Shown here: positions 3,940 through 54,977 of the stretch, one piece after another
Layout: every line of letters begins with the position of its first letter
Numbering within the stretch: position 1 is the first letter of the stretch
Virus record (IMG/VR): IMGVR_UViG_3300034091_000306
DNA: 64,000 bases
DNA from: an uncultured virus (IMG/VR IMGVR_UViG_3300034091_000306)
Taxonomy: Duplodnaviria; Heunggongvirae; Uroviricota; Caudoviricetes
Direction: 5' to 3' (one strand)
Notes under the pieces: model-generated
What the model saw: only the letters and a program-made list of their open reading frames with translations
What the model was told of the DNA's origin: nothing
Database searches by the model: none
Made by a program: the position numbers and the translations under genes

Positions 3940-3966
3940 TGACCGACGAGGCTCCCACAGTGGGGG
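3940..3966 (+). repeat. 27-bp dispersed repeat, copy 1
   Basis: TGACCGACGAGGCTCCCACAGTGGGGG, intergenic. Confidence 0.9.
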
Positions 3967-4032
3967 TTGATTTGGGTGACGCTGGGCCTCTTCCGTGTAG
4001 ACTAGTCTCTCCAACCCTCGAAGGAGAGCATC

Positions 4033-5082
4033 ATGACTACTCAAAAGACGGCGTCCACACGGAAAGTTTGGTTGCCGAAACATCAGAAGTGGGTGCATTT
4101 TTCGCATCGAGATGCCATGCGCCGCAAGCGGCCCATGAAGAAGGCGGTGCTTCCGAAGGCCGTTCCAGCGACATCGCTCCCCGTCGATTGCACAGGCAAC
4201 CAGACGGTATCCTGTCCCATGGATGCGAACGACACGTTGGGGATCTGCGGCCCTGCGATGTGTGATCACGTCGACGGCATCCGAACATACGGTCAGGGAC
4301 AGGCCGGCTTTGCGGAGATCCATGCGAATCTTGCCGCACTCGTCGCTCAGTATGAACAGGTGAGCGGCGGCGACAACGGCACCGACGAAGACATGCTCGT
4401 CGGCACGAACGGTATCTGGATGACCGGTCTCGCGAACGATCCTACGGCCGTAGTCGTCGATCATCTCGACGTGGACATCACTGACGTCGCGCTCGCGCAA
4501 TACTGCATGGATCAGTTCTATCACGTGAATATGGCTTGGAGCGTCCCTGACGATTTCATTCAGAAGTTCACGACCGGCGTTGTCTTCGCTGACGCCGATA
4601 CACCTAATCCGAACAACGGCCATTTCACGACTAACGCGGACGTCGGGGGGCCGACCACACTCTCCAGTGCCGGCGAATCGCTCAACGGCTTCATGTCTCT
4701 CTGGACGTGGGGGAGTTTCTGTTGGGTCTCTCCCGCGTTCGTCGCGAGCGTCGACCCCGAGTGCTTCGTCACGTTCTCCCCTCTTCAGTTCAACAAGGCG
4801 AGCGGCTACGATTCGCATGGCCGCCACGTGAGCGACCAGGCTGCAAAGTGGGTCGCCCTCGGCGGCAACGCTTCACTCGTCAATGCTGTCGTGGCGCAGT
4901 TCCCTCCGAAGACCGCGCCTCCCGCACCTCCCACGCCCCCGACGCCGCCGGCACCTCCCACGCCCCCGACGCCGCCGGCACCTCCCGCGCCTCCTGTAGC
5001 AGCGCCGACGCTCGCCCAGGTCGTGGCGGCCATCACGCCTCTCTGGCCCGCCGCATCATCCGCGAAGTCCGCGAAACCCTGA
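4033..5082 (+). CDS. putative papain-like cysteine peptidase with Pro-rich C-terminal tail
   Basis: MDANDTLGICGPA (candidate catalytic Cys), GGDNG, NGHF (candidate His), TWG; PPAPPTPPT repeats; GGAGAG RBS. Confidence 0.55.
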   Translation: MTTQKTASTRKVWLPKHQKWVHFSHRDAMRRKRPMKKAVLPKAVPATSLPVDCTGNQTVSCPMDANDTLGICGPAMCDHVDGIRTYGQGQAGFAEIHANLAALVAQYEQVSGGDNGTDEDMLVGTNGIWMTGLANDPTAVVVDHLDVDITDVALAQYCMDQFYHVNMAWSVPDDFIQKFTTGVVFADADTPNPNNGHFTTNADVGGPTTLSSAGESLNGFMSLWTWGSFCWVSPAFVASVDPECFVTFSPLQFNKASGYDSHGRHVSDQAAKWVALGGNASLVNAVVAQFPPKTAPPAPPTPPTPPAPPTPPTPPAPPAPPVAAPTLAQVVAAITPLWPAASSAKSAKP

Positions 5083-5103
5083 ACGAAGACGAAGCGACAC
5101 AAG

Positions 5104-5136
5104 AGGGGGGATGGGGCTTCCAGCCTCGTCCCCCCT
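5104..5136 (+). terminator. GC-rich hairpin, possible terminator
   Basis: AGGGGGGATGGGGCT-TCC-AGCCTCGTCCCCCCT just after the stop at 5082; U-tract is weak. Confidence 0.4.
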
Positions 5137-5138
5137 TC

Positions 5139-5157
5139 TGCTATACGTCGTAGTGCA
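5139..5157 (+). promoter_or_regulatory. 19-bp near-palindromic operator/promoter motif
   Basis: TGCTATACGTCGTAGTGCA upstream of the glycosylation operon. Confidence 0.7.
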
Positions 5158-5179
5158 TCATCAAAAGGAGCGCACGCCG

Positions 5180-5431
5180 TTGAAATACGCGATCCCCATC
5201 TACCCCATCATCGAGATCCAGGACGCGGCACAGGCCGAACAACTCCGAGCGAAGCTCGAGTACCTCCTCAACCAGCCGCAGATCAAGATGCTCCTGATGT
5301 CTCAGGGCGTGCCTGGGATCGTGAGCACGACGGTAGGCCCTCCCTACCTCGTCGACGAGCGCGCGATGGCTGCGCAGCAGGGACAGCAGCCGCCGCAAAT
5401 GCCGCAACAGGTCGCGCCGCGTCGTCGTTAG
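5180..5431 (+). CDS. hypothetical protein
   Basis: TTG start after AAGGAG; Gln/Pro-rich tail. Confidence 0.55.
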   Translation: MKYAIPIYPIIEIQDAAQAEQLRAKLEYLLNQPQIKMLLMSQGVPGIVSTTVGPPYLVDERAMAAQQGQQPPQMPQQVAPRRR

Positions 5432-5440
5432 GAGAAACAA

Positions 5441-9205: not shown

Positions 9206-10363
9206 ATGAGTGGCGTGTGTCTTGTCATGATCGTGAAGAACGAAAAGCACTGCATCGAGCGGTGTCTGCGGTCCACCTTTCCCATCATCGATTCCTGGTC
9301 GATCGTCGACACCGGCAGTACCGATGGGACGCAGGATCTTATCAAGGAGATCATGAAAGGCATCCCCGGCACGCTCCACGAGCGTCCGTGGCGAAACTTC
9401 GCGTTCAACCGCACGGAATCCATCGAGCTCGCGAGGAAATTCGCGGAGACCTCGTATGGTCTCGTTATCGATGCCGACGACGTACTGGAGATTCCAGACG
9501 ACTACAAACTGCCTATTCTAACCGCAAATACATACCGGCTTCGAATCGAATACGGCGGAACCGTCTACTACAGACCGCATCTCTTCCAGCTTTCAAGGCC
9601 GTTCAAGTACGAAAGCATTCTGCACGAATACCTGATGTGCGAAGGGCTCGACATCAGCAATGATCCAATCCTCAAAGGGATTATCTATCGCTGCTTCGCC
9701 GAGGGAAGCCGGAGCACCGACCCGAACAAATTCCTGAAAGATGCCGACCTACTCCGTGAAGCACTGAGAAAGGAACCCGATAATCGTCGGTATATGTTCT
9801 ATCTCGCGCAATCTTTGAAAGACGCCGGGAAGATCGAGAAGGCAATCACCGCGTACGAGCGTCGTTCCAACGTCTCAGGCTGGGACGAAGAGACGTGGAT
9901 GTCGATGCAAGAGGCGGCAAGGTTGAAGGAGTGGATCAATCAACCTGAGCAGACCATCGTTCATAGCTATTTGAGAGCATACGAGTTTCGGCCTACAAGA
10001 GTCGAACCTCTCTACGAGCTTGCGCGCTATTACCGAACAAAGAAGAATCGCCCCACGATTGCGTATATATATGCCGCGGCCGGCTACAGAGCCGTTCGAC
10101 CAACCGACCAGCTCATGCTCGACGAGAGTATCTATCAATGGCGGATGAGTTATGAATTCGCGATTTCGAGTTGGTACGCCGGAAAGATCGAGGAGAGCCG
10201 AGAGGCGCATCTGCTGCTACTCAACAATGAATTTGTGCCTGTAGAAGAGCGCGTCCGACTCGTCGATAACATGAAGTTTTTCACTAACACGAAAGACGAC
10301 GCGGTGACCGACGAGGCACCCACAGTTGGGGGGGCGGTTGCGCTACCGGCGGCTCCGCGATGA
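9206..10363 (+). CDS. GT2 glycosyltransferase with C-terminal TPR-like helical repeats
   Basis: CLVMIVKNE, IVDTGSTDGT, WRNFAFNR, IDADD, LHE, then RYMFYLAQS and YLRAYEFRPTRVEPLY. Confidence 0.88.
   Translation: MSGVCLVMIVKNEKHCIERCLRSTFPIIDSWSIVDTGSTDGTQDLIKEIMKGIPGTLHERPWRNFAFNRTESIELARKFAETSYGLVIDADDVLEIPDDYKLPILTANTYRLRIEYGGTVYYRPHLFQLSRPFKYESILHEYLMCEGLDISNDPILKGIIYRCFAEGSRSTDPNKFLKDADLLREALRKEPDNRRYMFYLAQSLKDAGKIEKAITAYERRSNVSGWDEETWMSMQEAARLKEWINQPEQTIVHSYLRAYEFRPTRVEPLYELARYYRTKKNRPTIAYIYAAAGYRAVRPTDQLMLDESIYQWRMSYEFAISSWYAGKIEESREAHLLLLNNEFVPVEERVRLVDNMKFFTNTKDDAVTDEAPTVGGAVALPAAPR
10305..10334 (+). repeat. 27-bp dispersed repeat, copy 2 (inside the 3' end of the GT gene, read as TDEAPTVGG)
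   Basis: TGACCGACGAGGCACCCACAGTTGGGGGGG. Confidence 0.9.
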
Positions 10364-10554
10364 TGCTTCTCGCGGTCCTCTACTTCGTGGCCGGGCTCCT
10401 CGCCGGACTGTTCCTCACTTCGCTCGCCGCGATCTCGTGGGTCGTGCGTCGCCTGCGCCCGGCGCGCCTCAAAGGGACCCCGCTCGAGGAGGTCATCGCG
10501 GAGATGGGGACGATCGCGCAGCGGCTCGATTTCGCGGCAGGACGCCGCCGGTAG
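10360..10554 (+). CDS. small membrane protein
   Basis: N-terminal hydrophobic helix followed by RRLRP; ATGA overlap. Confidence 0.6.
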   Translation: MMLLAVLYFVAGLLAGLFLTSLAAISWVVRRLRPARLKGTPLEEVIAEMGTIAQRLDFAAGRRR

Positions 10555-10555
10555 A

Positions 10556-10581
10556 CCCCCCATCTGTGGGTGCCTCGTCGG
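10556..10581 (-). repeat. 27-bp dispersed repeat, copy 3
   Basis: Reverse complement CCGACGAGGCACCCACAGATGGGGGG, right after the stop at 10554. Confidence 0.88.
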
Positions 10582-10632
10582 GCACTTGGATGTCGGGAGG
10601 ACAGCCGTTCAGCGTCCTGGTAGACTAGGCGG

Positions 10633-12888: not shown

Positions 12889-13713
12889 ATGGACCGCTTC
12901 GAACGCTATATGCATCAGGCCAATACGGCGCCGGTTCTATCGAGAGATGAAGAACTGCACCTCATCGAGAAGGCCCAGCAAGGCGACAAAAAATCTTGTA
13001 ATAGGCTAATGGCATCTAATCTTCGCTACGTGCTTCAACTTGCCTTCATGCATCGCGGCTACGGAATCTCCGTTGAAGATCTCGTAGGTGAAGGCAACAT
13101 CGGACTGCTCGAAGCCTTGAAGAAATTCGATCTGACGCGGAAGCTTCGTTTCATCTCCTACGCCTCGCACTGGGTTCGGGCGCGCATCGGCGAGTACGTG
13201 CGCGTGAAGAAAGACGGCTTCTTGGGCGGAATGGGCACCGGAAAAGTGCGCTACCAAGCGTTTTACAAGTTTGAATCGAGACGCGCGAAATTGGAATCGG
13301 AAGGCGTTCCAAGAGATGAGATCATGGCAACGCTGGCAACCGAATTCGGAACGACCGAGGAGCGCTTAGCAACCAGCGTACAGCGTCATGCTGTAAGTGT
13401 CGTTTCGCTCGAAGATGTTCGCCGTGAAGGCGAGATACCGCTGTCGGAGAAGCTCTGCGGCAATGATGCGAACGCAGAAGAGCAGCTCGTCGCCTTCGAA
13501 TCCTCGACGAAGCTGAAGGCTCAGGTTTCAAAATCGCTTCGTAAGTTGGACGTACGAGAGCGAGAGATCGTTCGCACAAGGATCATGTCGGAGGAGAAAG
13601 CGACACTCGACGCGCTCGGGAGTGTCTTTCAGGTGTCGCGTGAGCGTGCGAGGCAGCTGGAAGCTCGAGCGCTCGACAAGTTGCGTGGTCTTCTTGCAGA
13701 ACATGCGGCATAG
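12889..13713 (+). CDS. sigma-70 family RNA polymerase sigma factor, RpoH/sigma32-like
   Basis: Region 1.2 LSRDEE, region 2 SNLRYV...DLVGEGNIGLLEA..KFD...RFISYASHWVRA, region 4 TLDALG..FQVSRERARQLE. Confidence 0.9.
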   Translation: MDRFERYMHQANTAPVLSRDEELHLIEKAQQGDKKSCNRLMASNLRYVLQLAFMHRGYGISVEDLVGEGNIGLLEALKKFDLTRKLRFISYASHWVRARIGEYVRVKKDGFLGGMGTGKVRYQAFYKFESRRAKLESEGVPRDEIMATLATEFGTTEERLATSVQRHAVSVVSLEDVRREGEIPLSEKLCGNDANAEEQLVAFESSTKLKAQVSKSLRKLDVREREIVRTRIMSEEKATLDALGSVFQVSRERARQLEARALDKLRGLLAEHAA

Positions 13714-14683: not shown

Positions 14684-17197
<2,514 letters not shown>

Positions 17198-17216
17198 AAA
17201 GCTAGGGAGAGAAAAC

Positions 17217-17576
17217 ATGCGCTACATCGTCATTCTCGAGAGCATCAAGATCAAAGAGCAGTCAGACCCTATTACGTTCAACACAATGATCGAGAACTGG
17301 ACGAACGATAACAAGTTCGGTGCACTCGGCCTCGCCGGCACCAAGATGAGCATCGCCATTCATTCGCGTTTCGCGAAAGCGAAGGTCGGCGATGAAGTTC
17401 CGCTCGAAGACCGAGAGTGGACGCAGCTCTGCGACGTCGTGAACAATCCGACGGGCGGTTACGTCACGAGCGTTGCAAGACAGCTCATTCCGTTTTGCGA
17501 TGCGGTGATCGAAGCCCCGACGACGGCGAGGAAGACGGCGAACGGTTCAAGTGTAAGCGAGGAGAAGCGTCCATGA
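17217..17576 (+). CDS. hypothetical protein (possible fibre chaperone)
   Basis: GGGAGAG RBS; directly follows the fibre gene. Confidence 0.55.
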   Translation: MRYIVILESIKIKEQSDPITFNTMIENWTNDNKFGALGLAGTKMSIAIHSRFAKAKVGDEVPLEDREWTQLCDVVNNPTGGYVTSVARQLIPFCDAVIEAPTTARKTANGSSVSEEKRP

Positions 17577-17983
17577 AACTGATCACATTGACTCTGGCCT
17601 GCGTTCTCGCTGTTGGCGGCTGTCACCTGACGCCGGCCCAGCAAGCCGAAGAGACACAGATCGAGAACACCATTCTCGCTGATCTCGCCGCCGGGAAGAC
17701 GCTTCAACAGATCGAGGCTGACGTAGGAAAGATCGTCGCGGGACAGCCGGGCGTCGATGTCGTCGTCATCGTGAATGACGCTCTGCAGCTGCTCATCGAT
17801 CTCGGTGTCATCCCAACAAACGAGCTCCCACAAGCGAAGTCGATGATCGCGGTGCTCCATACGTCGATCCTGTCGCGAGGCGTTGACTCGGGTATCACCG
17901 CTCCAACGACTCACGCACCTGCGGTTGCTGTTGTGACAGATGCAGGCGCTTCTGCGGATGCTGCCGCTGCGCCAAAACACTGA
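17573..17983 (+). CDS. putative lipoprotein
   Basis: MKLITLTLACVLAVGGC signal peptide ending in Cys; ATGA overlap. Confidence 0.65.
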   Translation: MKLITLTLACVLAVGGCHLTPAQQAEETQIENTILADLAAGKTLQQIEADVGKIVAGQPGVDVVVIVNDALQLLIDLGVIPTNELPQAKSMIAVLHTSILSRGVDSGITAPTTHAPAVAVVTDAGASADAAAAPKH

Positions 17984-18008
17984 CCGACGGGGCGCCCACA
18001 GTGGTGGG
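17981..18008 (+). repeat. 27-bp dispersed repeat, copy 4 (its TGA is the lipoprotein stop codon)
   Basis: TGACCGACGGGGCGCCCACAGTGGTGGG. Confidence 0.82.
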
Positions 18009-18273
18009 TTCATACGGTTCATACAACGGTGACACGTTCGTTGAGGCGCTTCGGGACGCCTTGGCCGCGCGCGAGATGAAGCTTGTCTCCGCGACGCTGG
18101 GGCGCGCCGACGGCTTCGCCTCGTGGATCTTCAGCGTGCATCTGCCGAACGGCCAAGTCACGACCCTTCACGCGCCCGTGAAGGACGGGTGCGATCCCCA
18201 CGATGTCGAGCTTGCAGAGCCGATCGCCGAGCGCGCCGCGGCGTGGTGGCATCTACGTCGGAACAAGACGTAG
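18001..18273 (+). CDS. hypothetical protein
   Basis: 90-aa ORF; start uncertain because it lies within the repeat. Confidence 0.45.
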   Translation: MVGSYGSYNGDTFVEALRDALAAREMKLVSATLGRADGFASWIFSVHLPNGQVTTLHAPVKDGCDPHDVELAEPIAERAAAWWHLRRNKT

Positions 18274-18462: not shown

Positions 18463-18510
18463 GACGTTCAAGTAGAGACCCTTCGAGGGACTTGCGCTAG
18501 CCTGAGAAGC

Positions 18511-21792: not shown

Positions 21793-21820
21793 CCCCCAAC
21801 TGTGGGTGCCTCGTCGGTCA
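21793..21820 (-). repeat. 27-bp dispersed repeat, copy 5
   Basis: Reverse complement TGACCGACGAGGCACCCACAGTTGGGGG, between divergent genes. Confidence 0.9.
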
Positions 21821-23845: not shown

Positions 23846-23872
23846 TGACTGACGGGGCATCCACGGTGGGTG
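23846..23872 (+). repeat. 27-bp dispersed repeat, copy 6 (degenerate)
   Basis: TGACTGACGGGGCATCCACGGTGGGTG. Confidence 0.7.
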
Positions 23873-23925
23873 TGACTGCGCTCATGGGGTCGTGTAGCCT
23901 TCTCTTGACGTTCAGAGAGAGGTAA

Positions 23926-27290: not shown

Positions 27291-27322
27291 TGACCGACGA
27301 GGCCCCCACAGTTGGGGGGGGG
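27291..27322 (+). repeat. 27-bp dispersed repeat, copy 7
   Basis: TGACCGACGAGGCCCCCACAGTT followed by a G9 run. Confidence 0.9.
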
Positions 27323-32887: not shown

Positions 32888-32915
32888 TGACCGACGAGGC
32901 ACCCACAGTGGGGGG
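32888..32915 (+). repeat. 27-bp dispersed repeat, copy 8
   Basis: TGACCGACGAGGCACCCACAGTGGGGGG, between divergent genes. Confidence 0.92.
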
Positions 32916-32934
32916 CCTCTGGTACGCTTGGGCT

Positions 32935-33480
32935 ATGACGGAGAACCCTGATCCCGGGCCGTTCGGCGCGCCTGAGCCAGATTCGATGGTGGAGATCCTG
33001 AAAGAACTCCGGGACGAGCTACGCGCCGCGCGAGCGGTACGTCATGCGCCGCGTCCTTGGTACGTTCGGGAGCCGGCCAAGGGGGTCCTCACGCACACCC
33101 TGGCGGTCCTTGTGGCCTTGTCGCTCGGCTTCGTCTTGCATGCCCTCACGGGAGCGTCGATCACGATCGAGGCGAAGGGCGAGAAGCAGGGGGAGCATGT
33201 GGAGACCGTCGGCATCGCCCCGCCGCCAGCCACCGCAGCGCCAAGCATCGACCTTCCCTCCGCGTTCGCCTACGTGCCGCCTCCTCCTTCGCCTCCTCCA
33301 GCGCCGAACGTGAAGGTCCGCGGCCGAGCTATCCCGCAAGCTATCGCGGCAGCGCCGGCAGCGGCTCCTCCGCCGGCTGCGACGACGCTTTCCGTGCCTA
33401 TTCCGGGACCCGAAGAGCCCAAGCCGCCCATGATGACAGCCTCGCCGCCAGCTGCGCCGGCCAGCGCCGCTACGAAGTAG
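32935..33480 (+). CDS. Pro/Ala-rich single-pass membrane protein
   Basis: MTENPDPGP start preceded by TGGTACGCT; TM helix TLAVLVALSLGFVLHAL. Confidence 0.6.
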   Translation: MTENPDPGPFGAPEPDSMVEILKELRDELRAARAVRHAPRPWYVREPAKGVLTHTLAVLVALSLGFVLHALTGASITIEAKGEKQGEHVETVGIAPPPATAAPSIDLPSAFAYVPPPPSPPPAPNVKVRGRAIPQAIAAAPAAAPPPAATTLSVPIPGPEEPKPPMMTASPPAAPASAATK

Positions 33481-33760
33481 GCACCCCCACCCCCACTGTG
33501 GGTGCCTCGTCGGTCTCCTTGAGTGCAAGCGCTCGAGATTTGCCGCCGAGTCGTCCGATCGCGCGCATGTGCTCACGGTCTTGCGAGACCGTCTTACCGC
33601 CTTTCTTGCCGGCCTCACGCGCCTCTGCGGGATTGAATGTGTGCGCCGATCCGCGCTCATGAACAGCAATGCCGCCTTTACGCGCGGTCTCGCGTTGCTT
33701 CTCGGGATCCCACGACGCAAATCCGCGTTTCGACTTCTTCTTCTTCTCTTCAAGAGTCAT
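33470..33760 (-). CDS. KGG-repeat stress-induced protein (YciG/Con-10-like)
   Basis: RGFASWDPEKQRETARKGG, HTFNPAEAREAGKKGG, DREHMRAIGRLGG. Confidence 0.88.
   Translation of the reverse strand: MTLEEKKKKSKRGFASWDPEKQRETARKGGIAVHERGSAHTFNPAEAREAGKKGGKTVSQDREHMRAIGRLGGKSRALALKETDEAPTVGVGVPTS
33490..33515 (-). repeat. 27-bp dispersed repeat, copy 9 (in the KGG gene tail, read as TDEAPTVG)
   Basis: Reverse complement GACCGACGAGGCACCCACAGTGGGGG. Confidence 0.9.
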
Positions 33761-41098: not shown

Positions 41099-41306
41099 CT
41101 CCGACCAAGCTGATCGAGATCGCTCGGCGTAGAGGCATCGTTCGCTGGCTGAAATCGGATCTCGTCGAACGTGTATCCATTAGCGAAGGCGGATGGGTAC
41201 GAACGAGAAGCACTCCTCACAAACCGAATGAATAGTATCGTGCATTGAAACTCGTAGCGGATTACTGCTGCGAAGAAGTTACTATTTCAACGGAGAGACA
41301 AACATC

Positions 41307-41951
41307 ATGAGCAAGACAGAGCAGCAGCAACAGTACGCAGAAGAGCCGATGGGCGGCGAAGCCGAATACGAGATGAACTGGGACGAAGTCGGCAGCCTTT
41401 GCCCCAAGGGCCTCTTCGACTTCAAGGTCGTCGACGCCAAGTACCAGCTCTCCAAGTCGCAGAAGCACATGGTCGTCGTACGCTTTGCCGTTGAGGGCGC
41501 CCACGACGAGGCGAACATGGAATCCAGCAAGAACAAGAGCGTCTTCGAGAACTTTCTCTTCACGACGTCGGCCGGCTTCCGCGTGAAGGGCTTCGCGAAG
41601 GCGACCGGGATCGAACTCCCGCCGCTCATCAACAAGGACATCCTCGAGCAGTGGGCGGCGAGCATCCATGACGTTATGGTGGCCGGCCTCGTCGACTACC
41701 AGGACTTCAACGGCGAGCCCAAGGCGACGATCAAGAAGTTCATCACCTATGGCACCGCTACGGAGGATCAGCCGCAGGAAGAGGAGGCGCCTCCGCCGCC
41801 AGCTCGTACAAACGGTACGACCGCCAAGGGCATCCGCGCCGCGGTGAACGGCGCAGCGAACGGCAAGGTCAACGGACACGCGAACGGCGCCAAGGCGAGC
41901 CCGCCCGCGAAGAAGACCGCCATCGGTCAGAAGGCGCAGGCGCGAAAGTAA
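41307..41951 (+). CDS. DUF669-like single-stranded DNA-binding protein
   Basis: PKGLFDFKVVDA...SKS..HMVVVRFAV...VFENF...F.KA.G...V....FNGE. Confidence 0.7.
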   Translation: MSKTEQQQQYAEEPMGGEAEYEMNWDEVGSLCPKGLFDFKVVDAKYQLSKSQKHMVVVRFAVEGAHDEANMESSKNKSVFENFLFTTSAGFRVKGFAKATGIELPPLINKDILEQWAASIHDVMVAGLVDYQDFNGEPKATIKKFITYGTATEDQPQEEEAPPPPARTNGTTAKGIRAAVNGAANGKVNGHANGAKASPPAKKTAIGQKAQARK

Positions 41952-41963
41952 GGGCGGCCTCCA

Positions 41964-43172
41964 ATGAGTGCCACGCCCAGTCGGGTTTCTTCGGTTCAGC
42001 TGTACCAACGACTGCACTGGTCAATGCTCCCAGTAGATGGGGAGTCAAAGGAGCCTCTCTGCGCGTGGCGCGCATTCACCGAACGCCTTCCTGACGCATT
42101 CGACATTCACAACTGGACGATGCGCTTCCCGAAGGCAGGAATCGCAGTCATTACAGGCCCGATCAGTGACCTACTTGTCCTAGACGCCGATGGACCCGAT
42201 GCAATCGCTGAAATCGAACGGAGAGGAATTCCGAAAACTCCGATGGTTCGAACGCCTGGGAATCCTGCGAAAGGAAGACCCGAGGGACTTCATTGCTACT
42301 TCAAACACCCAAAGGATCTCCCACCGTTCAAATCGTCTACGAAGCTCGGCGATTCCAAAAAGCTCGACGTACGAGGCGCGGGCTCTTACGTCGTGGCTCC
42401 GTACACTCGACGACGAGACGGACGAGCCTACCGCTGGATCGCACATCCCGATCGCACGCCGCTCGCCTACCCCCCGGCGTGGTTCCTTGGGATGCTGAAG
42501 GCCGCAGCCAAAGACCACCCTGCCCCCCACTGTGGGGGCCCCGTCGGTCAATCTACATCGAGCGGATCGAGCTCAAAACCTACGCACAAGGGACCGACGA
42601 GGCCCCCACAGAGGGGGGTCGAGGCCCTTGTCGAGGGGTTGCCGCCACGACTCAAGGGGCTCATCGAGCAGGTACTCTACAAGCCGTATCGGAGTGAGCG
42701 CGATTTCGACGCCGTCGTAGGCATGCTCGCGAATGGTCTCAACGAGGAGATGATCGAATCGATTTTCGATGCGTATCCCGTCGGGGACAAGTACCGCGAT
42801 GACGGTCAGCGCTATCTCGAGCGTACGATTTCGCTCGCGTACGATTGTGTGAAGGTCGTTCACATCAAGTACGCCGACATGAATTCGTATTCTTCTCGAA
42901 TGACCGACGGAACGGATCATCGACTTCAGCTCTGCTTTGAAGTTGAGGATGGTGGCGCGCTGATTCGATGCGGCATCACCGTTCCCAGCGGAGTCGAGGA
43001 CGGAGCAGAGCGATGGATCAAGTTCTTCGAAGCTGTGGGCCTCGCGCCTCCGTTCGGGGAGCGAGCGCTTTCTGTGGGACAACGTCTGATCGGAAGAAAG
43101 TTGCGCTTGGAGGTTGACAACAGAGGTAGGCGGCAGAACCCTGTTGCGGCCTTCTACAAAATACAGGAGTGA
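41964..43172 (+). CDS. bifunctional primase/polymerase (Prim-Pol) protein
   Basis: GIAVITG..SDLLVLDADG, VRT, GLHCYF, DVRGAGSYVVAP, YRW. Confidence 0.88.
   Translation: MSATPSRVSSVQLYQRLHWSMLPVDGESKEPLCAWRAFTERLPDAFDIHNWTMRFPKAGIAVITGPISDLLVLDADGPDAIAEIERRGIPKTPMVRTPGNPAKGRPEGLHCYFKHPKDLPPFKSSTKLGDSKKLDVRGAGSYVVAPYTRRRDGRAYRWIAHPDRTPLAYPPAWFLGMLKAAAKDHPAPHCGGPVGQSTSSGSSSKPTHKGPTRPPQRGVEALVEGLPPRLKGLIEQVLYKPYRSERDFDAVVGMLANGLNEEMIESIFDAYPVGDKYRDDGQRYLERTISLAYDCVKVVHIKYADMNSYSSRMTDGTDHRLQLCFEVEDGGALIRCGITVPSGVEDGAERWIKFFEAVGLAPPFGERALSVGQRLIGRKLRLEVDNRGRRQNPVAAFYKIQE
42523..42550 (-). repeat. 27-bp dispersed repeat, copy 10 (inside Prim-Pol)
   Basis: Reverse complement TGACCGACGGGGCCCCCACAGTGGGGGG. 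Confidence 0.85.
42592..42618 (+). repeat. 27-bp dispersed repeat, copy 11 (inside Prim-Pol)
   Basis: GACCGACGAGGCCCCCACAGAGGGGGG. Confidence 0.85.
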
Positions 43173-43465
43173 TTATGTTTGATTTGAAGGTATATCTCGA
43201 CGCTGGGTACAACTTGATCGCGCGTGCGGTGGATCTCTATGAACGACACGTAGTCGTGGAAGAGAAACAGCTGGCGCTTGATATCGAGAATACGAAGTTT
43301 ATGCGTGAGCGCAATCTTCTCGAAGCCGAGGAGTCAAAAGAAGCGGCAGAAGCCTCTCAGCGAACCGCCGCCAACGCGATGGCTGCGATGACCGAGATGA
43401 TCGCTGCGGCAACGCGAGGAGACGGTATGAATCTGCCTTGGGTGAAGACACCAAAACCGGAGTAG
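43169..43465 (+). CDS. hypothetical coiled-coil protein
   Basis: AGGAG RBS; coupled to Prim-Pol. Confidence 0.55.
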   Translation: MIMFDLKVYLDAGYNLIARAVDLYERHVVVEEKQLALDIENTKFMRERNLLEAEESKEAAEASQRTAANAMAAMTEMIAAATRGDGMNLPWVKTPKPE

Positions 43466-43471
43466 TAGTTC

Positions 43472-43735
43472 ATGTTCTCGTTCGAGATTTCGTTCGAGGA
43501 GTTTATCGAAGGTAGGAATCTTCGATGCCAATGTAAGCGGATGGCGCCGACATGCGCAGAGTATGTGCATGCGTTCCATTGTCCCATCGGCGTTGCGAAG
43601 GAAGAGTGGACCGCCAACGGTCGGAAGCTCTGGGATACGATCCAGAAGCGCGAGCATCTGGAGCTCAAAAAGGTGAAAGCACTTTCTGCTGCGGCAGCGG
43701 CAATGATGCGCCATAACGATTACGTGGGGGTATGA
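43472..43735 (+). CDS. hypothetical protein
   Basis: 87-aa ORF with GGAG RBS. Confidence 0.45.
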   Translation: MFSFEISFEEFIEGRNLRCQCKRMAPTCAEYVHAFHCPIGVAKEEWTANGRKLWDTIQKREHLELKKVKALSAAAAAMMRHNDYVGV

Positions 43736-43756
43736 GGCAATGGAGAGGAGGAAGCT

Positions 43757-44670
43757 ATGTCACTCGAATCGGACAAGCCTTCGGTCGAGCATCTGCTAGC
43801 CAAGATTACTCGCGCAAAAGCGGGCCCGCTAACGGATGTTCCTGTCATAGATTATGTCAGTTACCGCATTCAGCTTCCGACACCAAAAGAGCAGCTCGAG
43901 AAGGCGTTCGATTCTAGCATCAGTTTGTGTCATGCGACGTCGTCCCTTATCGAAATCTCTGAAGATGTCGAATCAACATTCGTCGTCAACGGTGTATCTC
44001 AATGTGACTATCTGCTGCTCGGTGTGCGGCTTCAGTTGAGCGGAGATCCGACGCGATTCGTTATTGGTGGCGAAGACGAGCAGGGACGTGCCGCCATACT
44101 CGAGTGGGGATCGAGTGACCCGCTGCGCCATTTTGCAGCGGCTTACAATCTTCATCTGATTGCTCAGCTTCATCTGATTGCTCAGCAGCGGTACATTCTG
44201 ATCAACATTTAGTTTCGGATATCGCAGAGTTTAGCCTGCAAGATCCTGTCGATGGTGATGTGTCGGCTGTTCGTCAAGTGGCGCGATTGAATGCGCTTTT
44301 GCAGGAACGTCAAATGTCTCGGTTCAAGCCGCCGTCTTCTTGGGGTAAAGGCGTATCGGAGAAGCGTGTGCTTGCGCCGATGACGCCTCCCGCCGATACT
44401 ATTCCGTTTGGTGTGTTCGTGGAAGCGGGCGTTCTCAATGCAACACTCGACTGCGTCAGCCTTGCCGAACGCGCACGCATGATCGAAGCGATGACGATCA
44501 TGAATACGTCGCCTATCGCCTATAGCGGCGGATCGTTCGCTATGCGTCTATCTTTTCACGGTTATGAACTGTCGCATCCGTGGAAGGAGTTGGTGCTCAA
44601 AAACGCGAACACGCTGCGTGAGGCAGGCCTAGCGTTTGCGCAGCCTATAGGAATGAGGGCACTCCGATGA
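43757..44670 (+). pseudogene. beta-rich protein apparently split by a frameshift near 44200
   Basis: ORF 43757-44212 ends QRYILINI*; the -1 frame reads DQHLVSDIAEF... into ORF 44260-44670; 18-bp tandem duplication (LHLIAQ x2) just upstream. Confidence 0.5.
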
Positions 44671-44897
44671 CGTTGTCGCATGAAGTTCAGTCGAAGCTCG
44701 CGCGTGTCGTGCTTCAACGCGGATTCGACTTTCTCGAACCGATTTTGAAGATGAATCGATCGACTATCGAGAAGGCAGCGGCTTTCGGGCAGTGCACCGA
44801 AATGCAGGCGAAGATCATCACCGTATTTGTTCAAGAGCGCGTCTTCGATAGCGTGCCCATCAGTAAGGTCAGACTAGAACCAATTTCAGAGAAGTAA
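44667..44897 (+). CDS. hypothetical protein
   Basis: 76-aa ORF with ATGA overlap. Confidence 0.5.
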   Translation: MTLSHEVQSKLARVVLQRGFDFLEPILKMNRSTIEKAAAFGQCTEMQAKIITVFVQERVFDSVPISKVRLEPISEK

Positions 44898-44925
44898 TTT
44901 ACGTAGTAGGATAGGAGAGAGAAAA

Positions 44926-45336
44926 ATGGATCTGCATCCAGTGCTTGTACGTGTACTGAAGTTCAAACTCGGGGAGGTGAAGTTGTCCGCGGCGGCAGAG
45001 AAAGCGCTCGCGCTGGACTACTATCGTTATGTGACGGGCGACGATCTTTTTGGCGGTTCGTCTGACGATGGATCCGATCAACCGGCTAATGCGTTGTCGA
45101 CCGCCTGCGCTGCCGCAACGGTCAAGAACTAGACCTGGGAGCCTGGTCACCTCATTGATGGAGTCATCAATGTGATGGGCAATAGGCGTGTCAATACGGT
45201 TTGGGTGTATGAGCAGTTTCAGTCGCTTGGATGGAAAGGAACGAAGACCTCCATTCGAAAGACTATGTACAAGGGCGTAGATCTCGGCATGCTTAGGCGT
45301 GTGGGAGGCGGCCTTTACGAACTTACGACGAAATAG
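44926..45336 (+). pseudogene. wHTH-like protein with in-frame TAG at 45130-45132
   Basis: The same frame continues TWEPGHLIDGV...SIRKTM...GMLRRVGGGLYEL up to the base before the next ATG. Confidence 0.45.
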
Positions 45337-45564
45337 ATGAAGACGATCATCGTCAACGGTGTGAAGAAGCAGGTTGGCGCTCTCACACTCTCATTCGAGC
45401 AGCTAGTACGTTTGGCATTTGGAGACATAGCCGATCCAGACGCCTACGCAATTCGGTACGTCGGGCACATGGATGGGACGTACGAAGGCTACGGCAACGC
45501 GGTCTCCGGAGACAGGATCGTTGTCGTCAGCGGACTAACTTTTACGGTCAAGTTGAAGCCGTGA
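45337..45564 (+). CDS. ubiquitin-like (multiubiquitin/beta-grasp) domain protein
   Basis: IIVNG..K.V....LSFEQLVRLAF...Y.I.Y...G....G..I.V..G..F.V pattern. Confidence 0.65.
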   Translation: MKTIIVNGVKKQVGALTLSFEQLVRLAFGDIADPDAYAIRYVGHMDGTYEGYGNAVSGDRIVVVSGLTFTVKLKP

Positions 45565-46094
45565 AGCTCGTCGTCGTTGAATCTCCGTACGCAGGAGAAA
45601 TCGAAAAGAACCTCACCTATGTGCGAGCGGCGATGGCGGATTGTCTTCGTCGAGGAGAATTTCCGTTTGCGTCGCATGCCTTGTACACCCAGCCGGGTGT
45701 CCTCGACGACGCAATCCCCGCTGAACGAAAGCTAGGCATCGCCGCCGGCTTTGCTTGGGGAGAAAAAGCAGAACTGATCATCTTCTATGTCGATCTCGGT
45801 TGGAGCCGAGGGATGACGCTCGGTCTCGAGCGCGCAGGCACTCGAAACGCGAAGATTCGAACGCGGACGCTTGGGACGCCGTGGTCCGATGCGGTACCGT
45901 CGGATGCGGAGATGGACTTCGCGGTCAAGCGCGCGTTTTGTACAAATGGCATTCATCTTCCATACGAGGTACCGGTTCGCGTGAAGTCGCCCGGACATTG
46001 TTCAGACTCTGTCGAATGTGGTTGGCACTGCCCCCACTGCCTAAATCACGTACCTCTGCAAGAAAAAGACCTTCGAATGTTGGGTCCGCGTTGA
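45561..46094 (+). CDS. conserved phage protein, nucleoside deoxyribosyltransferase-like fold
   Basis: VVVESPYAGEIEKN...CLRRGE.PFASH.LYTQ..VLDD..P.ER.LGI.AG...YVDLG.S.GM. Confidence 0.7.
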   Translation: MKLVVVESPYAGEIEKNLTYVRAAMADCLRRGEFPFASHALYTQPGVLDDAIPAERKLGIAAGFAWGEKAELIIFYVDLGWSRGMTLGLERAGTRNAKIRTRTLGTPWSDAVPSDAEMDFAVKRAFCTNGIHLPYEVPVRVKSPGHCSDSVECGWHCPHCLNHVPLQEKDLRMLGPR

Positions 46095-46171
46095 TTATCT
46101 ATTGACGCACCGATATGACGATGTATGCATGGTGATGACCGAGTGGGGTCCTAGAGAAAGAGAGTTCGATC

Positions 46172-46720
46172 ATGAGCGATTTGAAGAACAAGATCAGTGA
46201 GCTGGCCGATCAGTTTTCGGAGGGGGTTCTCGCGGCCATCCGTACTGTGTCTCTCGATGAGCTGAGCGGCGAAGGATCCGAGGCGCCTGCCGCGCCGCGT
46301 CGCGGCCGTCCGCCGGGACCGGCCAAGGTTGCCAAGGCGGCCGGAGGCGGCTCTCCTGGGCGTCTTGCGCGTCGGAGCCCGGAGCAGATCGAGGCCACCA
46401 TCGAGAGCATCGTGGGAGCGCTCAAGAAGGCTCCTGACGGGCTCGGGAGCGAGGCCCTGCAGTCGATGCTGGGCATCGAGAAGAAGGAGATCACGGGGCC
46501 GCTCAACCAGGCGCTCGCTTCCCGCGTGCTCAAGAAGAGCGGGAACAAGAGGGCAACGCGCTACTTCCTCGGTGGCGGCGGATCGTCCAAGACGACCAAG
46601 AGCCCGAAGAAGAGCCCGGGCAAGGTCTCCTCGAAGAAGACGGCGTCGAAAAAGACGAAGAAGGCGGCTCCAAAGAAGAAGCCGGCGGAGAAGGCCGAGG
46701 CTGCCGCTTCGAAGGAGTAA
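46172..46720 (+). CDS. histone-like DNA-binding protein (AT-hook-like RRGRP, wHTH-like core, Lys-rich tail)
   Basis: PRRGRPPG; RRSPEQIEA...GLGSEAL...G.KRATRYF; KSPKKSP/KKAAPKKK tail. Confidence 0.7.
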   Translation: MSDLKNKISELADQFSEGVLAAIRTVSLDELSGEGSEAPAAPRRGRPPGPAKVAKAAGGGSPGRLARRSPEQIEATIESIVGALKKAPDGLGSEALQSMLGIEKKEITGPLNQALASRVLKKSGNKRATRYFLGGGGSSKTTKSPKKSPGKVSSKKTASKKTKKAAPKKKPAEKAEAAASKE

Positions 46721-47077
46721 GACCTCGGGAGACCGCTGGTCGACGTGAGGATGCGGCGTTACCTTTCCGCCGCGTTTTCTTCGTTACATCGGTGCGGACC
46801 TTCTTGCTCGGCGAGGGCTCCCCGGGAAGCCGAGCACTTTTTTCGCGATGGGGAACACGTCCGCATGTGTTCCCCATCGCTTTTGCGTTTCGTAGGGAGG
46901 AGTAGTTCATGGTTGATGTTGAAAGTTTCGACGAAGTGATTCTCGATGTCCCTTCGGGAGCCTGCCCGGAGTGTGGCGGTACTGGATACAGCGTTGTCGA
47001 TGATGGAGCGGATACATATCCCTGCACCATATGCGCAGGGACCGGAAACGCGGACGTTTCGCAGCGGGACGCCTAAA

Positions 47078-52519: not shown

Positions 52520-52836
52520 TGAATACAACAAGTAGTGCGGAGAAGGAAGCGATCATCCAGAAGACGCTTCACTACATGCTCAGCATCATCTCTCAGTCTA
52601 CAGGAGAGACGCCGGTAGCAGCGATCTTCGTGGTGCAGTTCAACCGGCCGCAAGACGCCTACGCATCGATCACGACCGCCAATCTGGATGTGCCTGGCGC
52701 TACGCCAACACAAGGATTGGATCTGCTACCGATTCCTCTTGCGCTCAAGGTACTCGACAATCTCGCCGAGAGAATCCTGGCTGAGATCCGCGTCGCGAAG
52801 GTCCATATCAATACCGTTAGAAGCTCAGATGCATGA
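52519..52836 (+). CDS. hypothetical protein
   Basis: 105-aa ORF with TAATG overlap. Confidence 0.5.
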   Translation: MNTTSSAEKEAIIQKTLHYMLSIISQSTGETPVAAIFVVQFNRPQDAYASITTANLDVPGATPTQGLDLLPIPLALKVLDNLAERILAEIRVAKVHINTVRSSDA

Positions 52837-53018
52837 ATACACAAATGTGCTCCGCGAACTGCCGACGTCCCTACAACACGCCGCCTTGTCGATTTCCAAA
52901 GCGGCATCAACGATTGCACCTCGATGCGTAGTTTTTGGATTTTGGCAACAATCATCTTGATAACGGGTGTCATCGCACTCATCGCATTGCTGCGCGCAAT
53001 CAACATGCTGGATATTAC

Positions 53019-53570
53019 ATGAACAGACGCATCGCCGTTACCGGAGCTAGCGGCACGGGCAAAAGCCGCGTCGTCGAGCACCTCTACAGCCGCTTGCAGC
53101 TCCCCATCAACCCGGTGGGCAGCCGCTCCATCGCAAAGTCCCTCGGCTTCGACAGAGTCTATGACGTCGACAAGCACAACCTCCGCGGCGTGTTCCAGCG
53201 GAAGCTCTTCGCCGAGAAATCAAATTGGGAAGCTGCAAACGACGACTTCCTCACCGATCGGACTGTCTTCGACAACCTCGCCTACACGATGGTCCATGGC
53301 GGTACCGAGACGATGAGACTCGAAGAGCTATCCGGTTACATCGAGGCAGTGAAGCGATACACGACGATAATTTACTTACCGGTCTACGTCTTCCAGAAGC
53401 TTGGAGACGATCCCTCCCGCTCGCAGAGTGAGGTTTATCACCAAATGTATGACATGGTCATTCGCGCGCTATTCATCGAATACAAGATTCCGAACGTGCT
53501 TACACTTCACTGCCCGCTCGAGGAGCGCATCAAGATCATCGACAGTCTACTAGACGAAAAGTGTATTTGA
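53019..53570 (+). CDS. AAA_28/NadR-like P-loop nucleotide kinase
   Basis: RIAVTGASGTGKS, FLTDRTVFDNLAY, DDPSR. Confidence 0.78.
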   Translation: MNRRIAVTGASGTGKSRVVEHLYSRLQLPINPVGSRSIAKSLGFDRVYDVDKHNLRGVFQRKLFAEKSNWEAANDDFLTDRTVFDNLAYTMVHGGTETMRLEELSGYIEAVKRYTTIIYLPVYVFQKLGDDPSRSQSEVYHQMYDMVIRALFIEYKIPNVLTLHCPLEERIKIIDSLLDEKCI

Positions 53571-53782
53571 ACACCATGGACCGAGGAAGCAAAATCGAAG
53601 CGTGTCTCGGCTGCAGGGGAATGATGACACTGGCCTGCTTGAAGAGTGGTAGCTCTGAACGAGAAATGCTCTCCCACTACAAGGGCGCTTGGTTCGGCCT
53701 AAGGCAAGACGAGGAGGGCATTGTGTCGCTCGTCATCGCCTGCTCCCAGGCATGTGCTGAGAAGTTGCTCGATACTTGAAGT

Positions 53783-54163
53783 GTGGTTATGAGAGATGGA
53801 ATGAACCAGGCACACAAAATCACGTGCGATCTCGACGAGGACTGTTCGTGCGAAGATGCTGCACCTGCACCGATGACCGACGTGGCACCCACAGATGGGG
53901 TTGAGCCGCTGGGTGCGCTCGAGGCTCGCCTGAAGCTGGTCACGGATGAGGAGTTCGCGTCCTTCGTTCACCGCGTCACGATGCGCGCGGGCGTTTCTCC
54001 CAAAGGAATTTTAGCTGTCGTCCATTGGGGCGCGCGCGCTGACGTGAACGTGCTTCTGCCGACCGTCGAGGATCCGGGTGAAGCCGCCGAGATATTGCAA
54101 GAGCTGCGGGGAAGCGCCGAACTGTCGGTGGACGATTTGTTCAGGACGAAGGGGGATGCATGA
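53783..54163 (+). CDS. hypothetical protein
   Basis: HKITCDLDEDCSC N-terminus; contains repeat copy 12 in frame. Confidence 0.5.
   Translation: MVMRDGMNQAHKITCDLDEDCSCEDAAPAPMTDVAPTDGVEPLGALEARLKLVTDEEFASFVHRVTMRAGVSPKGILAVVHWGARADVNVLLPTVEDPGEAAEILQELRGSAELSVDDLFRTKGDA
53874..53900 (+). repeat. 27-bp dispersed repeat, copy 12 (read as TDVAPTDG)
   Basis: TGACCGACGTGGCACCCACAGATGGGG. Confidence 0.85.
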
Positions 54164-54480
54164 ACAAGATGACCAAGCGCGCATTGGACGTCGCCACTAC
54201 CGCGCTGAGAGCGAAGAAACCTAAGGACTTCCAGAAGCAGATCGTCGCCGAGGCAAAGCGCATCGGCATCGACATGAACGATGCGGATGCGATGGTCGAT
54301 AGCGGAGTGATGTACGGCATCCGCATCACTGAGGCGCTGCACGAGCTGGTCGCGGTGTGCCACGACATGGAGAAGCGACCCACGAAGAAATTGCTCGATC
54401 GCTACGCTCGATGCATCGCCAACGCCGAAGATGTGCTCGCGAACCCGTTCGGCGAGACCTTGCCGCGCAGGGTGCAGTGA
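54160..54480 (+). CDS. hypothetical protein
   Basis: 106-aa ORF with ATGA overlap. Confidence 0.55.
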   Translation: MNKMTKRALDVATTALRAKKPKDFQKQIVAEAKRIGIDMNDADAMVDSGVMYGIRITEALHELVAVCHDMEKRPTKKLLDRYARCIANAEDVLANPFGETLPRRVQ

Positions 54481-54926
54481 TGACGGGCGGGTTGTTTTGC
54501 ACGAGATGTAACCTGCGATGGGTAGATTGTCCGTGTCCGCCGGGAGTGGATTGCATCGATGCCCCAGATTCCGAGCCTGCGCCTGGGCGTATGCAGATGT
54601 CTGAGATCGGCCCCGTCCAGCACGCGGAAAATACCGAGCCCTACACTCCGACGGACGAAGACTACGCCGCGATGATGAACGACGGCATCATCCCTTCCAA
54701 GCCACGAGAGCGCTTCAAGCTCACTCTCAAGGCGCCGTACCCGCAGACGCACCCGCTCGCGCGTCAGCCCGGCAACGTCGCCGTCTATGTGTACGGCGAA
54801 GAGACCGAAGACGCGATCGTCATCTCCGCGCCCATCGATCCGAACGACGTCCTCGAGATCGAGCGCGCCGGCCGCTACGACGCTGCTACGAACAGCATCG
54901 TCGACGACCCCGAGCCACGTCCATGA
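54480..54926 (+). CDS. hypothetical protein with N-terminal Cys cluster
   Basis: TGATG overlap; CTRC...CPC. Confidence 0.5.
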   Translation: MTGGLFCTRCNLRWVDCPCPPGVDCIDAPDSEPAPGRMQMSEIGPVQHAENTEPYTPTDEDYAAMMNDGIIPSKPRERFKLTLKAPYPQTHPLARQPGNVAVYVYGEETEDAIVISAPIDPNDVLEIERAGRYDAATNSIVDDPEPRP

Positions 54927-54949
54927 TCGATCGACAAATCTCGGCCTGA

Positions 54950-54977
54950 CCCCCATCTGTGGGTGCCTCGTCGGTCA
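54950..54977 (-). repeat. 27-bp dispersed repeat, copy 13
   Basis: Reverse complement TGACCGACGAGGCACCCACAGATGGGGG, intergenic. Confidence 0.92.

Follow-up and report, generated by a model that had tools for sequence, protein, structure and literature searches.

A dispersed 28-bp repeat of a large uncultured phage and its possible recognition by the phage primase-polymerase

Which protein reads a 28-bp word that is scattered over both strands of a phage genome, and what does the word do there? This question is raised by the 64,000-nt stretch of DNA analysed here (IMG/VR record IMGVR_UViG_3300034091_000306), which is called the window in the following and is a part of an uncultured large phage of about 140 kb whose proteins are on record from a 140,646-bp contig. 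The repeat was found in 13 copies in the window and, in variant form, in two distant relatives, and a copy in the gene of the primase-polymerase (Prim-Pol) is shared by all of them. It is very probably a selected DNA signal of the phage clade, which is read by a protein and co-evolves with the clade. As to the reader, we favour a replication signal recognised by the phage's own primase-polymerase of the pRN1/RepB'/ColE2-Rep type, a tentative reading with the chances still clearly against it. The related variants and the link to Prim-Pol are additions to an earlier sequence-only reading of this DNA, which had missed both.

The repeat and its copies

The repeat word is 28 bp long with the consensus TGACCGACGAGGCACCCACAG[W]TGGGGG. 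At up to three mismatches the 28-mer gave 11 matches in the window and none in 100 shuffles, and its 20-nt core GACCGACGAGGCACCCACAG at up to four mismatches recovered all 13 copies listed by the sequence-only reading, eight on the plus and five on the minus strand. The core is exact in five copies, and the copy at 23846 (+) is the most diverged with four mismatches. A profile built from the copies found exactly 13 matches in the window (E <= 1e-6), the next match being at E = 3.8; because nothing weaker was found by this search, the copies are either intact or absent and none is decaying. The 13-copy repeat on two strands was confirmed in this way, with start coordinates corrected by one at 10557, 33489 and 42591. 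The right arm had been described as palindromic, and of this a stem of 4-6 bp remains. It was formed in all 12 copies (of the 13) that were folded as single-stranded DNA, and the fold was no better than that of shuffled sequences (z -1.73 to +0.45). Moreover, the whole motif has no significant dyad symmetry, the best dyad being 8/13 in the relative G002 (p about 0.06) and none in the window.

The copies and the genes that enter the argument are given below with their window coordinates and strand.

3940..3967, plus strand: copy 1, intergenic, 65 nt 5' of the ATG of gene 4033-5082
10305..10332, plus strand: copy 2, in a C-terminal tail of GT2-TPR (gene 9206-10363) that is not conserved, 30 nt upstream of the small membrane-protein gene 10363-10554
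10557..10584, minus strand: copy 3, 2 nt past the stop of 10363-10554; inward-facing partner of copy 2
17981..18008, plus strand: copy 4, its TGA being the stop of the open reading frame (ORF) 17573-17983 and its GTG the first possible start of 18001-18273
21793..21820, minus strand: copy 5, in the gap between two divergent genes, its distance to the collagen-like fibre gene 20584-21768 (-) downstream being 25 nt
23846..23873, plus strand: copy 6, the most diverged, upstream of the collagen-like gene 23929-26964
27291..27318, plus strand: copy 7, upstream of the collagen-like gene 27424-28572
32888..32915, plus strand: copy 8, between a methyltransferase-like gene (-, start about 32864) and the ORFan 32908/32935-33480 (+)
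33489..33516, minus strand: copy 9, 8 nt past the ORFan stop, in the non-conserved C-terminal tail of the KGG-repeat gene 33470-33760 (-)
42523..42550, minus strand: copy 10, read as the peptide APHCGGPVGQ in the disordered Prim-Pol linker
42591..42618, plus strand: copy 11, read as the peptide GPTRPPQRG in the same linker
53874..53901, plus strand: copy 12, at the start of ORF 53783/53873-54163, an unsupported ORF
54950..54977, minus strand: copy 13, 23 nt past the stop of 54591-54926; inward-facing partner of copy 12
10363..10554, plus strand: bracketed gene of a 63-aa membrane protein
32908..33480, plus strand: bracketed ORFan gene, coding for a membrane helix plus a Pro/Ala-rich tail
41964..43172, plus strand: Prim-Pol gene, coding for an AEP (archaeo-eukaryotic primase) domain that a disordered linker connects to a helix bundle and an OB-like domain; its product is the candidate reader of the motif

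Seven of the 13 copies are intergenic, and none is found in a conserved or folded protein segment. Five copies had been placed inside genes; this location stands, but the segments occupied are non-conserved C-terminal tails (copies 2 and 9), the disordered linker (copies 10 and 11) and the unsupported ORF (copy 12), and homologs of the genes holding copies 2 and 9 are without the copy-encoded tails. The peptides that had been quoted for the in-gene copies were found to be correct. Since the copies are read in several frames and strands, conservation acts at the DNA level, as the sequence-only reading had held, and this is further borne out by close relatives that keep the copies despite diverged flanks and by the variants in distant relatives. 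With respect to the local genes, 10 copies are co-oriented, of which eight are positioned 0-110 nt upstream of a gene start, and three (10557, 42523 and 54950) are antisense. Most sense copies have a separate Shine-Dalgarno sequence and start codon downstream; gene 4033-5082 behind copy 1 has its own Shine-Dalgarno sequence, and gene 18001-18273, which has a homolog in the relative G001, has its only possible start within copy 4.

The WTG of the motif opens an ORF of at least 80 codons at 9 of the 13 copies, as compared with 8.4% of random positions. In this frame the motif is composed of a TGA stop followed by GAGG, 9 nt and the start codon. A role in translation start was set aside, as most of the ORFs opened by copies look like antisense or alternative frames of genes that are better by codon-position GC, which does not account for the excess. 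Directly 5' of copies 6 and 7, a 20-nt hairpin TGCACTACG(Y)CGTAATGCA is present (23823-23843 and 27268-27288), and the genes downstream of these two copies are two paralogous collagen-like fibre genes.

A repetitive extragenic palindromic (REP) sequence or a MITE (a miniature transposable element with inverted repeats) of the host, or else an adapter or assembly artefact, had been named as possible trivial origins of the repeat, and neither was borne out. The core was scanned exactly, with 18 fixed bases, in one genome per species of 185,579 species. This gave 28 single matches, about 17 being expected by chance on our own arithmetic; none of the 28 has the G-run after the core and none is repeated on a contig, and the host REP/MITE was ruled out with these chance-compatible numbers. 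Scanning of metagenome contigs gave 50 loci, with the full word in 12 of them on ten short contigs. Seven of these contigs have flanks identical to window copies, and the other three (L015, L017 and L020) are from outside the window and provide four more copies of the same phage. Further, copies 4, 5, 8 and 9 are spanned by Logan contigs from two runs, with the same arrangement as in the reference. Because the same copies with the same flanks recur in independently assembled metagenome contigs and copies are bridged by the Logan contigs, an artefact was ruled out. No match was obtained in a motif scan of the IMG/VR collection, so the window's own record is not part of the collection scanned. 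None of four motif strings was found in any paper of the library searched; analogues of a dispersed repeat were retrieved and the same element was not.

On the contigs from beyond the window, the phage has a small gene of ribbon-helix-helix-like type (L017, 119-304) whose end falls inside a motif copy, and the upstream flank of the L017 copy (ATGGTGA...GCCGCAGG) is common to the copy at L020 797.

Variants in relatives and the primase-polymerase gene

The two distant relatives, G001 and G002, were found by searching IMG/VR with Prim-Pol and with DNA polymerase A (PolA), and Prim-Pol scans of this kind gave only distant relatives. Their Prim-Pol proteins are 42-44% and their PolA proteins 49-50% identical to those of the window. 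G001 (locus L095) is 105.5 kb long with terminal repeats and 67% GC, and has 11 copies of GAACGNNGGGGNNCACNG, against none of the reversed-pattern control; it also has a long form, GAACGWCGRGGCTCCCACTGGTGGGG, which is nearer to the window word. G002 is a 59.3-kb fragment of 38% GC in which 14 copies of TCCGACAAGGATTCACTG were found at up to three mismatches (control 0) and 22 by profile search. Overall, each distant relative has about 20 copies of its own variant. The three consensus words can be aligned as GA(T)CCGAC-R-AGG, 1-3 bases, YCAC-W-G and KTGG. The 3' block is (G/T/A)TGG in the window, as against GTGG for G001 and TTGGTT for G002, the gap between the two conserved blocks varies by 1-2 bp among the lineages, and the hairpin stem of the window motif is not present in the variants of G001 and G002. 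In still more distant relatives, a loose pattern detected the motif in none of five partial loci (L081-L083, L106 and L107).

ORFs make up 93.6% of the G002 record, and 15 of its 22 copies are mostly outside them. The gene array of G002 is one-directional and about half of its copies are antisense to it; among the 14 strong copies, five are sense and upstream of a gene, seven are antisense and two are at convergent gene ends. In proteins of close relatives (P0003/P0018, encoded on a contig of 159,591 bp, and P0004, on one of 111,743 bp) individual copies can be followed. Copies 10 and 11 are kept as recognisable peptides in Prim-Pol of relatives at 77% and 71% identity, and the 14 residues between them are unalike among these same relatives. 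Relatives at 80% and 73% identity have also retained copy 2 after their GT2-TPR gene; GT2-TPR homologs at 60-65% identity stop just before copy 2, and the sequence on either side is unalike. In close relatives, copies thus stay in place while their flanks diverge.

The three genomes have a single copy position in common, namely in the linker of Prim-Pol, where the copy is sense and in frame. It is found at 42591 (+) in the window, where the inverted copy at 42523 (-) accompanies it, at 53148 (+) in G001 and at 47149 (-) in G002. The linker copies fit the consensus of their own genome, with E 9e-8 in the window, E 0.0019 in G002 and, against a profile built without that copy, E 2e-5 in G001. 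As read from alignments, and therefore tentatively, the linker peptide of P0006 back-translates to the motif, and P0005 and P0007 possibly have a linker copy in another frame. Copies 10 and 11 point their 5' ends at each other across 40 bp. It is at this pair that the window's cumulative GC skew reaches its minimum (42609, or 42475 with the copies masked), the genes being on the plus strand on both sides of it. Over 38000-47000, the cumulative skew is flat and lowest at about 38-43 kb and rises steadily from about 43 kb.

The product of 41964..43172 has 402 aa and matches the Pfam Prim-Pol family at E 7.9e-27. Its structural model (mean pLDDT, the predicted local distance difference test score, of 80.7) comprises the AEP domain, a disordered linker with residues 188-215 below a pLDDT of 50, a helix bundle and a beta-rich domain. 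The best PDB matches of the model in Foldseek were the pRN1 primase (E 2.5e-10), the NrS-1 prim-pol and RepB' (E 3e-3); for the C-terminal part, a likeness to PrgE, a protein with an OB fold, was obtained (E 1e-3). A PDB sequence search with the C-terminal half of Prim-Pol and with the 214-aa neighbour protein gave nothing below E 0.3. The pRN1/NrS-1/RepB'/ColE2-Rep type is the group of AEP primases that is known as sequence-specific. RepB' uses a pair of inverted 40-nt repeats, located on complementary strands, for priming, each with a specific 5' part, a hairpin and a GTG start (PMC8567376), the recognition sequences of NrS-1 are TTTGGTTA and GTGG (PMC8718748), and specific origin binding is described for ColE2 Rep (PMC4538821). 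The 3' block of the motif resembles these GTG/GTGG sites, and the likeness is to be read as a resemblance and not as a test.

What may read the motif

A binding or recombination site had been proposed for the repeat, and such a general role in protein recognition or recombination is supported by the selection and the clade variants described above; for the particular protein that reads the motif, Prim-Pol is what we infer. If so, the inverted pair inside the Prim-Pol gene would be an origin-like site, at which one primer per strand would be laid down and lengthened through the 40 bp in between, in the manner of RSF1010 ssiA/ssiB. Further entry or priming sites would be provided by the scattered copies, of which there is about one every 3-5 kb, divided between the strands; these would be tolerated only where proteins are unharmed, that is at gene borders, in tails and in linkers. 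Being identical 28-bp words, the copies might act as recombination points as a by-product of their signal role, and through such recombination new genes would end up bracketed by inward-facing copies. The asymmetry of the motif together with its strand balance (8+/5- in the window, 11+/11- in G002 and 8+/11- in G001) suits a process that needs both strands.

The closest known counterparts are ssiA/ssiB, which is served by RepB', and the ColE2 origin. Their signals, like the motif, are asymmetric, tens of bases long and present as inverted copies on complementary strands, and they have a GTG-type start near the 3' end and are read by an AEP primase that is joined to a helix bundle via a flexible linker (PMC8567376, PMC4538821). 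The phage encodes a primase of that type, and the signal sits within the primase gene. On the other hand, the signals of ssiA/ssiB and ColE2 occur once at one origin, whereas the motif has at least 13 dispersed copies with a weak and unconserved hairpin, and it is known from sequence alone.

A number of points weigh against recognition by the primase. Prim-Pol is assigned as the reader by association. The hairpin is weak and is missing in the variants of G001 and G002, and the orientation of the copies has no polarity around the putative origin. The skew minimum of G002 is at another copy, at a divergent gene junction, and that of G001 is at neither place; an origin at Prim-Pol is supported by the skew in one of the three genomes only, that of the window, which covers 64 kb of about 140 kb. 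Abutting outward-facing doublets are located outside Prim-Pol, at 27109/27113 (27.1 kb) in G001 and at 42100/42104 (42.1 kb) in G002. Priming alone does not explain the inward-facing pairs that hug the starts and stops of small genes, and the linker copy could have been left behind when two genes on either side of an intergenic copy were fused. To our knowledge, primase sites are short or confined to a single origin, and dispersed priming signals of 27 nt are without precedent. The full picture, in which a large phage clade has a sequence-specific primase-polymerase that needs a signal of about 27 nt, the genome for this reason carries the signal every 3-5 kb on both strands, the primase gene holds an origin-like pair and the words double as joints for swapping ORFans, is rather improbable when taken as a whole. 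If true, it would be the first dispersed, co-evolving system of primase and signal, and it would extend the one-origin principle of ssiA/ssiB and ColE2 to a genome of the 100-kb class.

Alternatively, the motif may be an operator, insulator or roadblock, at which a sequence-specific DNA-binding protein of the phage, possibly a monomeric one with two domains, controls or blocks transcription at the borders of genes and modules. This possibility is modelled on the Cluster A stoperators or the unexplained 17-bp repeats of Cluster O, and it shares the evidence of selection, of clade variants and of intergenic placement. The ten co-oriented copies of the window, with the eight shortly upstream of a start, are in line with it, as is the abutting doublet of G001, which is situated in a gap of roughly 0.8 kb beside a leftward XRE-type helix-turn-helix gene. 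The change of 1-2 bp in block spacing between lineages would be tolerable to a flexible two-domain binder (PMC9283540). Moreover, only one sigma-70-type promoter match was found in 17000-35000, as against 6.2 expected from shuffles, and it is not at a copy; this scarcity suggests that the host or phage promoters are of a type outside the coverage of the scan. However, the orientation of the strong G002 copies is untied to transcription in spite of the asymmetric site, whereas stoperators orient with transcription (PMC4351075). A candidate regulator common to the three genomes was not found, and a copy kept within the Prim-Pol reading frame in all three would not be expected of an operator. Such a regulatory site is thus conceivable, and we regard it as doubtful.

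The two model systems of an operator differ from the motif in other respects as well. Stoperators are asymmetric dispersed sites in short intergenic gaps with lineage-specific variants, as is the motif; they are 13-14 bp long and oriented with transcription (PMC4351075, PMC9283540), whereas the orientation of the motif is mixed. The Cluster O repeats resemble it in their tens of dispersed copies, which are mostly intergenic with about a third coding, in being untied to the direction of transcription and in having no established function (PMC4351075). They are perfect 7-bp inverted repeats, whereas the motif is asymmetric and of 27-28 bp.

A third reading starts from the mutual orientation of the copies. 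Neighbouring copies alternate in orientation in 7 of 12 cases in the window, 17 of 21 in G002 and 13 of 18 in G001 (37/51 in total, p = 0.0009, the lists of G001 and G002 including weak profile matches), and neighbours of the same orientation are never nearer than 3.2 kb. Inward-facing pairs, with the G-run ends inside, were found in all three genomes, and in these the enclosed genes, on whichever strand, always have the sense motif on their 5' side and its complement on their 3' side. In close pairs the sense copy is 0-31 nt before the start and the other copy 1-24 nt after the stop of the small genes enclosed. The window pairs are 10305/10557 (around the 63-aa membrane protein), 32888/33489, 53874/54950 (three genes) and 17981/21793; others are L020 797/1604, G002 1836/2216 and 22222/23841, and three pairs in G001. 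The close pairs measure 249-1074 bp in the window, 514-565 bp in G001 (three times) and 350 bp in G002. An abutting inward-facing doublet is present in G002 at 15796/15853.

The copies might accordingly be the ends of mobilisable cassettes, the motif being a terminal inverted repeat or a REP/REPIN-like unit that is moved or recombined by a putative enzyme; inward-facing pairs would be cassette ends, doublets empty cassettes and single copies relics. Besides the alternation, this is favoured by the unrelated cargo, as nine pair interiors showed no similarity to one another, and by the protein of 32908-33480, the one cargo protein searched, for which no homolog but itself was found among 5.8 billion clusters (8000 candidates sharing most words were scored). 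The bracketed genes have a higher G+C content at third codon positions (0.79 versus 0.66, p = 0.0003), the gene calls being chosen partly by this same measure. One contig of run X1 joins 32914 to 33487, which are the inner ends of copies 8 and 9; the short side of this joint is 28 letters, below the reliability mark of the tool, and it is a hint only. The outer end of the motif starts with TG, copies within tails and linkers are in stop-free frames, a TnpB-like gene is found in G001 and a serine recombinase in G002.

Cassettes of this kind are nevertheless unlikely. No transposase or recombinase is common to the three genomes, and a scan of 120 ORF queries from the window gave none; Y1/RAYT (PF01797) gave no match in G001 and G002, while the same search matched in 6 of 14 genomes, and the Resolvase is restricted to G002. 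No target duplications or direct repeats were detected at the flanks of the four window pairs, and partners are no more alike than non-partners. Copies are positionally stable in close relatives, one of them across the whole clade, and neither decayed copies in the window nor copies in host genomes were found. In G002 the median gaps of inward- and outward-facing neighbours are alike (1796 and 1848 bp), and the larger brackets enclose core genes. The alternation, moreover, could simply reflect the purging of deletion-prone direct repeats. Among the Logan joints listed, most of which are noise from collagen repeats, no strand-change (inversion) joint was seen, and the search for inversion and excision junctions that had been suggested yielded the weak deletion joint 32914/33487. 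Of the cassette shuffling considered by the sequence-only reading, the bracketing of genes by inward-facing pairs, one of them an ORFan, is in its favour and the missing common recombinase is not.

Two known classes of mobile or invertible DNA fit poorly: the MITE or terminal-inverted-repeat transposon, of which the inverted terminal repeats are present and the target duplication, related cargo and common transposase were not found, and the serine-invertase crossover site (gix/hix type), as there are no two dyad-symmetric half-sites, the Resolvase is in G002 only and no strand-change joints are listed. Known cassette and repeat systems are also only partly alike. The PeSL cassettes of T4-type phages are short repeats at ORFan borders, as is the motif, and are tied to insertions, deletions and module shuffling (PMC2839356, PMC4122927); PeSLs are directly oriented and combine a sigma-70 promoter with a terminator stem-loop, whereas the motif has neither and its copies are turned towards one another. 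REP/REPIN elements with RAYT share with the motif the short extragenic repeats on both strands, the inverted doublets and the lineage-specific sequences; unlike them, the motif has no stable palindrome, no RAYT and no copies in bacterial genomes, and its positions are stable. The TnpB-like protein of G001 (L095, 3737-5668; 643 aa) combines OrfB_IS605 with a Cas12f-like TNB domain, and its gene is near the left end of the record, where motif copies are found at 2843-2871 (-) and 3370-3397 (+).

A phage-specific promoter, read by a phage sigma factor or an unrecognised phage RNA polymerase with transcripts starting at the G-run, is very unlikely. Promoters of single-subunit polymerases are about 22 bp long and are followed by a G-run, which the motif recalls in size and shape. 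The eight sense copies closely upstream of genes, including three collagen-like fibre genes, and the sigma factor encoded in the window would fit as well. But a promoter of this kind would, in about half of the G002 copies, drive antisense transcription of an array of genes that all point one way; three copies of the window are also antisense, no start codon follows the Prim-Pol copy in the window, and G001 and G002 carry the motif without a Sigma70_r2 match. The search for a T7-type polymerase (PF00940) gave no match, and its control was also unmatched in every genome. The activation of transcription that had been suggested for the repeat is poorly supported, because about half of the G002 copies are antisense. 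The start-associated sequences of Cluster K (SAS, and ESAS in extended form) are conserved words near gene starts, and the motif is like them in its GAGG, nine bases and start codon; SAS are 13 bp long, share one orientation with few exceptions and immediately precede start codons (PMC3203893), whereas most sense copies here have a separate Shine-Dalgarno sequence and start codon after them.

Pairing of 5' sense and 3' antisense copies into a 27-bp RNA stem, to be cut by RNase III or to lock the mRNA in the manner of rRNA processing stems or a hok-type fold-back, would fit the constant sense-complement order of the inward-facing pairs and the 63-aa membrane protein encoded in the smallest unit (10305-10584), but it is highly improbable, as many copies lack a partner over a distance of several kb, the Prim-Pol mRNA would be destroyed by a stem of this kind within it, and the partners have no private compensatory changes. 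A known RNA family was ruled out as the identity of the motif, with no Rfam match in the window at the gathering threshold. The smallest bracketed unit is 280 bp long, with the gene of the single-helix membrane protein between 28-nt inverted copies, and it recalls the fold-back-locked mRNAs of type I toxins.

Significance of the motif and gene content of the phage

Dispersed repeats of phages are a known kind of element, as the stoperators, SAS/ESAS, Cluster O repeats and PeSLs show. The present repeat differs from these in that it is long and asymmetric yet free of transcriptional orientation, alternates between strands, co-varies across a deep clade and is anchored in the primase gene. Short dispersed repeats are among the few readable regulatory features of uncultured phage genomes, and several of those described (Cluster O, SAS) are still without a function. 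The present motif is unusually tractable, being long, asymmetric and bimodal; it has three variants that co-evolve, in genomes between 38 and 67% GC, and a copy of it is fixed in the primase linker. If it is read by Prim-Pol, it would show how sequence-specific AEP primases serve large genomes and would provide three matched pairs of enzyme and signal for studies of specificity. If instead it marks cassette ends, it would offer a handle on the entry of ORFan genes into phage genomes.

The window also encodes Dam- and N4/N6-type methylases, an SNF2 helicase, glycosyltransferases, a sigma factor, five collagen-like fibre genes, a PD-(D/E)XK nuclease, AAA_24 and AAA_25 ATPases, UvrD-type helicases, a fusion of uracil-DNA-glycosylase (UDG) with PolA, ThyX and a dCMP deaminase, together with Prim-Pol. 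Among its small DNA-binding proteins are a ribbon-helix-helix (RHH) protein at 38234-38416, an RHH-like ORF at 34724-35248 and the product of 46172-46720. No tRNA was found in the window, and no near relative was found among the GenBank phages of INPHARED. The sigma factor (12889-13713) has regions 2 and 4, with RpoH-like proteins as its best matches. A membrane-anchored methyltransferase-like gene at 32414-32870 (-) is 61% identical to G002 23878-24450 and is split between two frames near 32710, by a frameshift or an assembly error. PolA (55513-58020) has an N-terminal uracil-DNA-glycosylase domain, a fusion that is conserved in G001 and G002, and near it are an oversized ThyX (494 aa), the dCMP deaminase and several methylases and glycosyltransferases. 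This set of UDG-PolA, ThyX, deaminase, methylases and glycosyltransferases may point to modified DNA in the phage.

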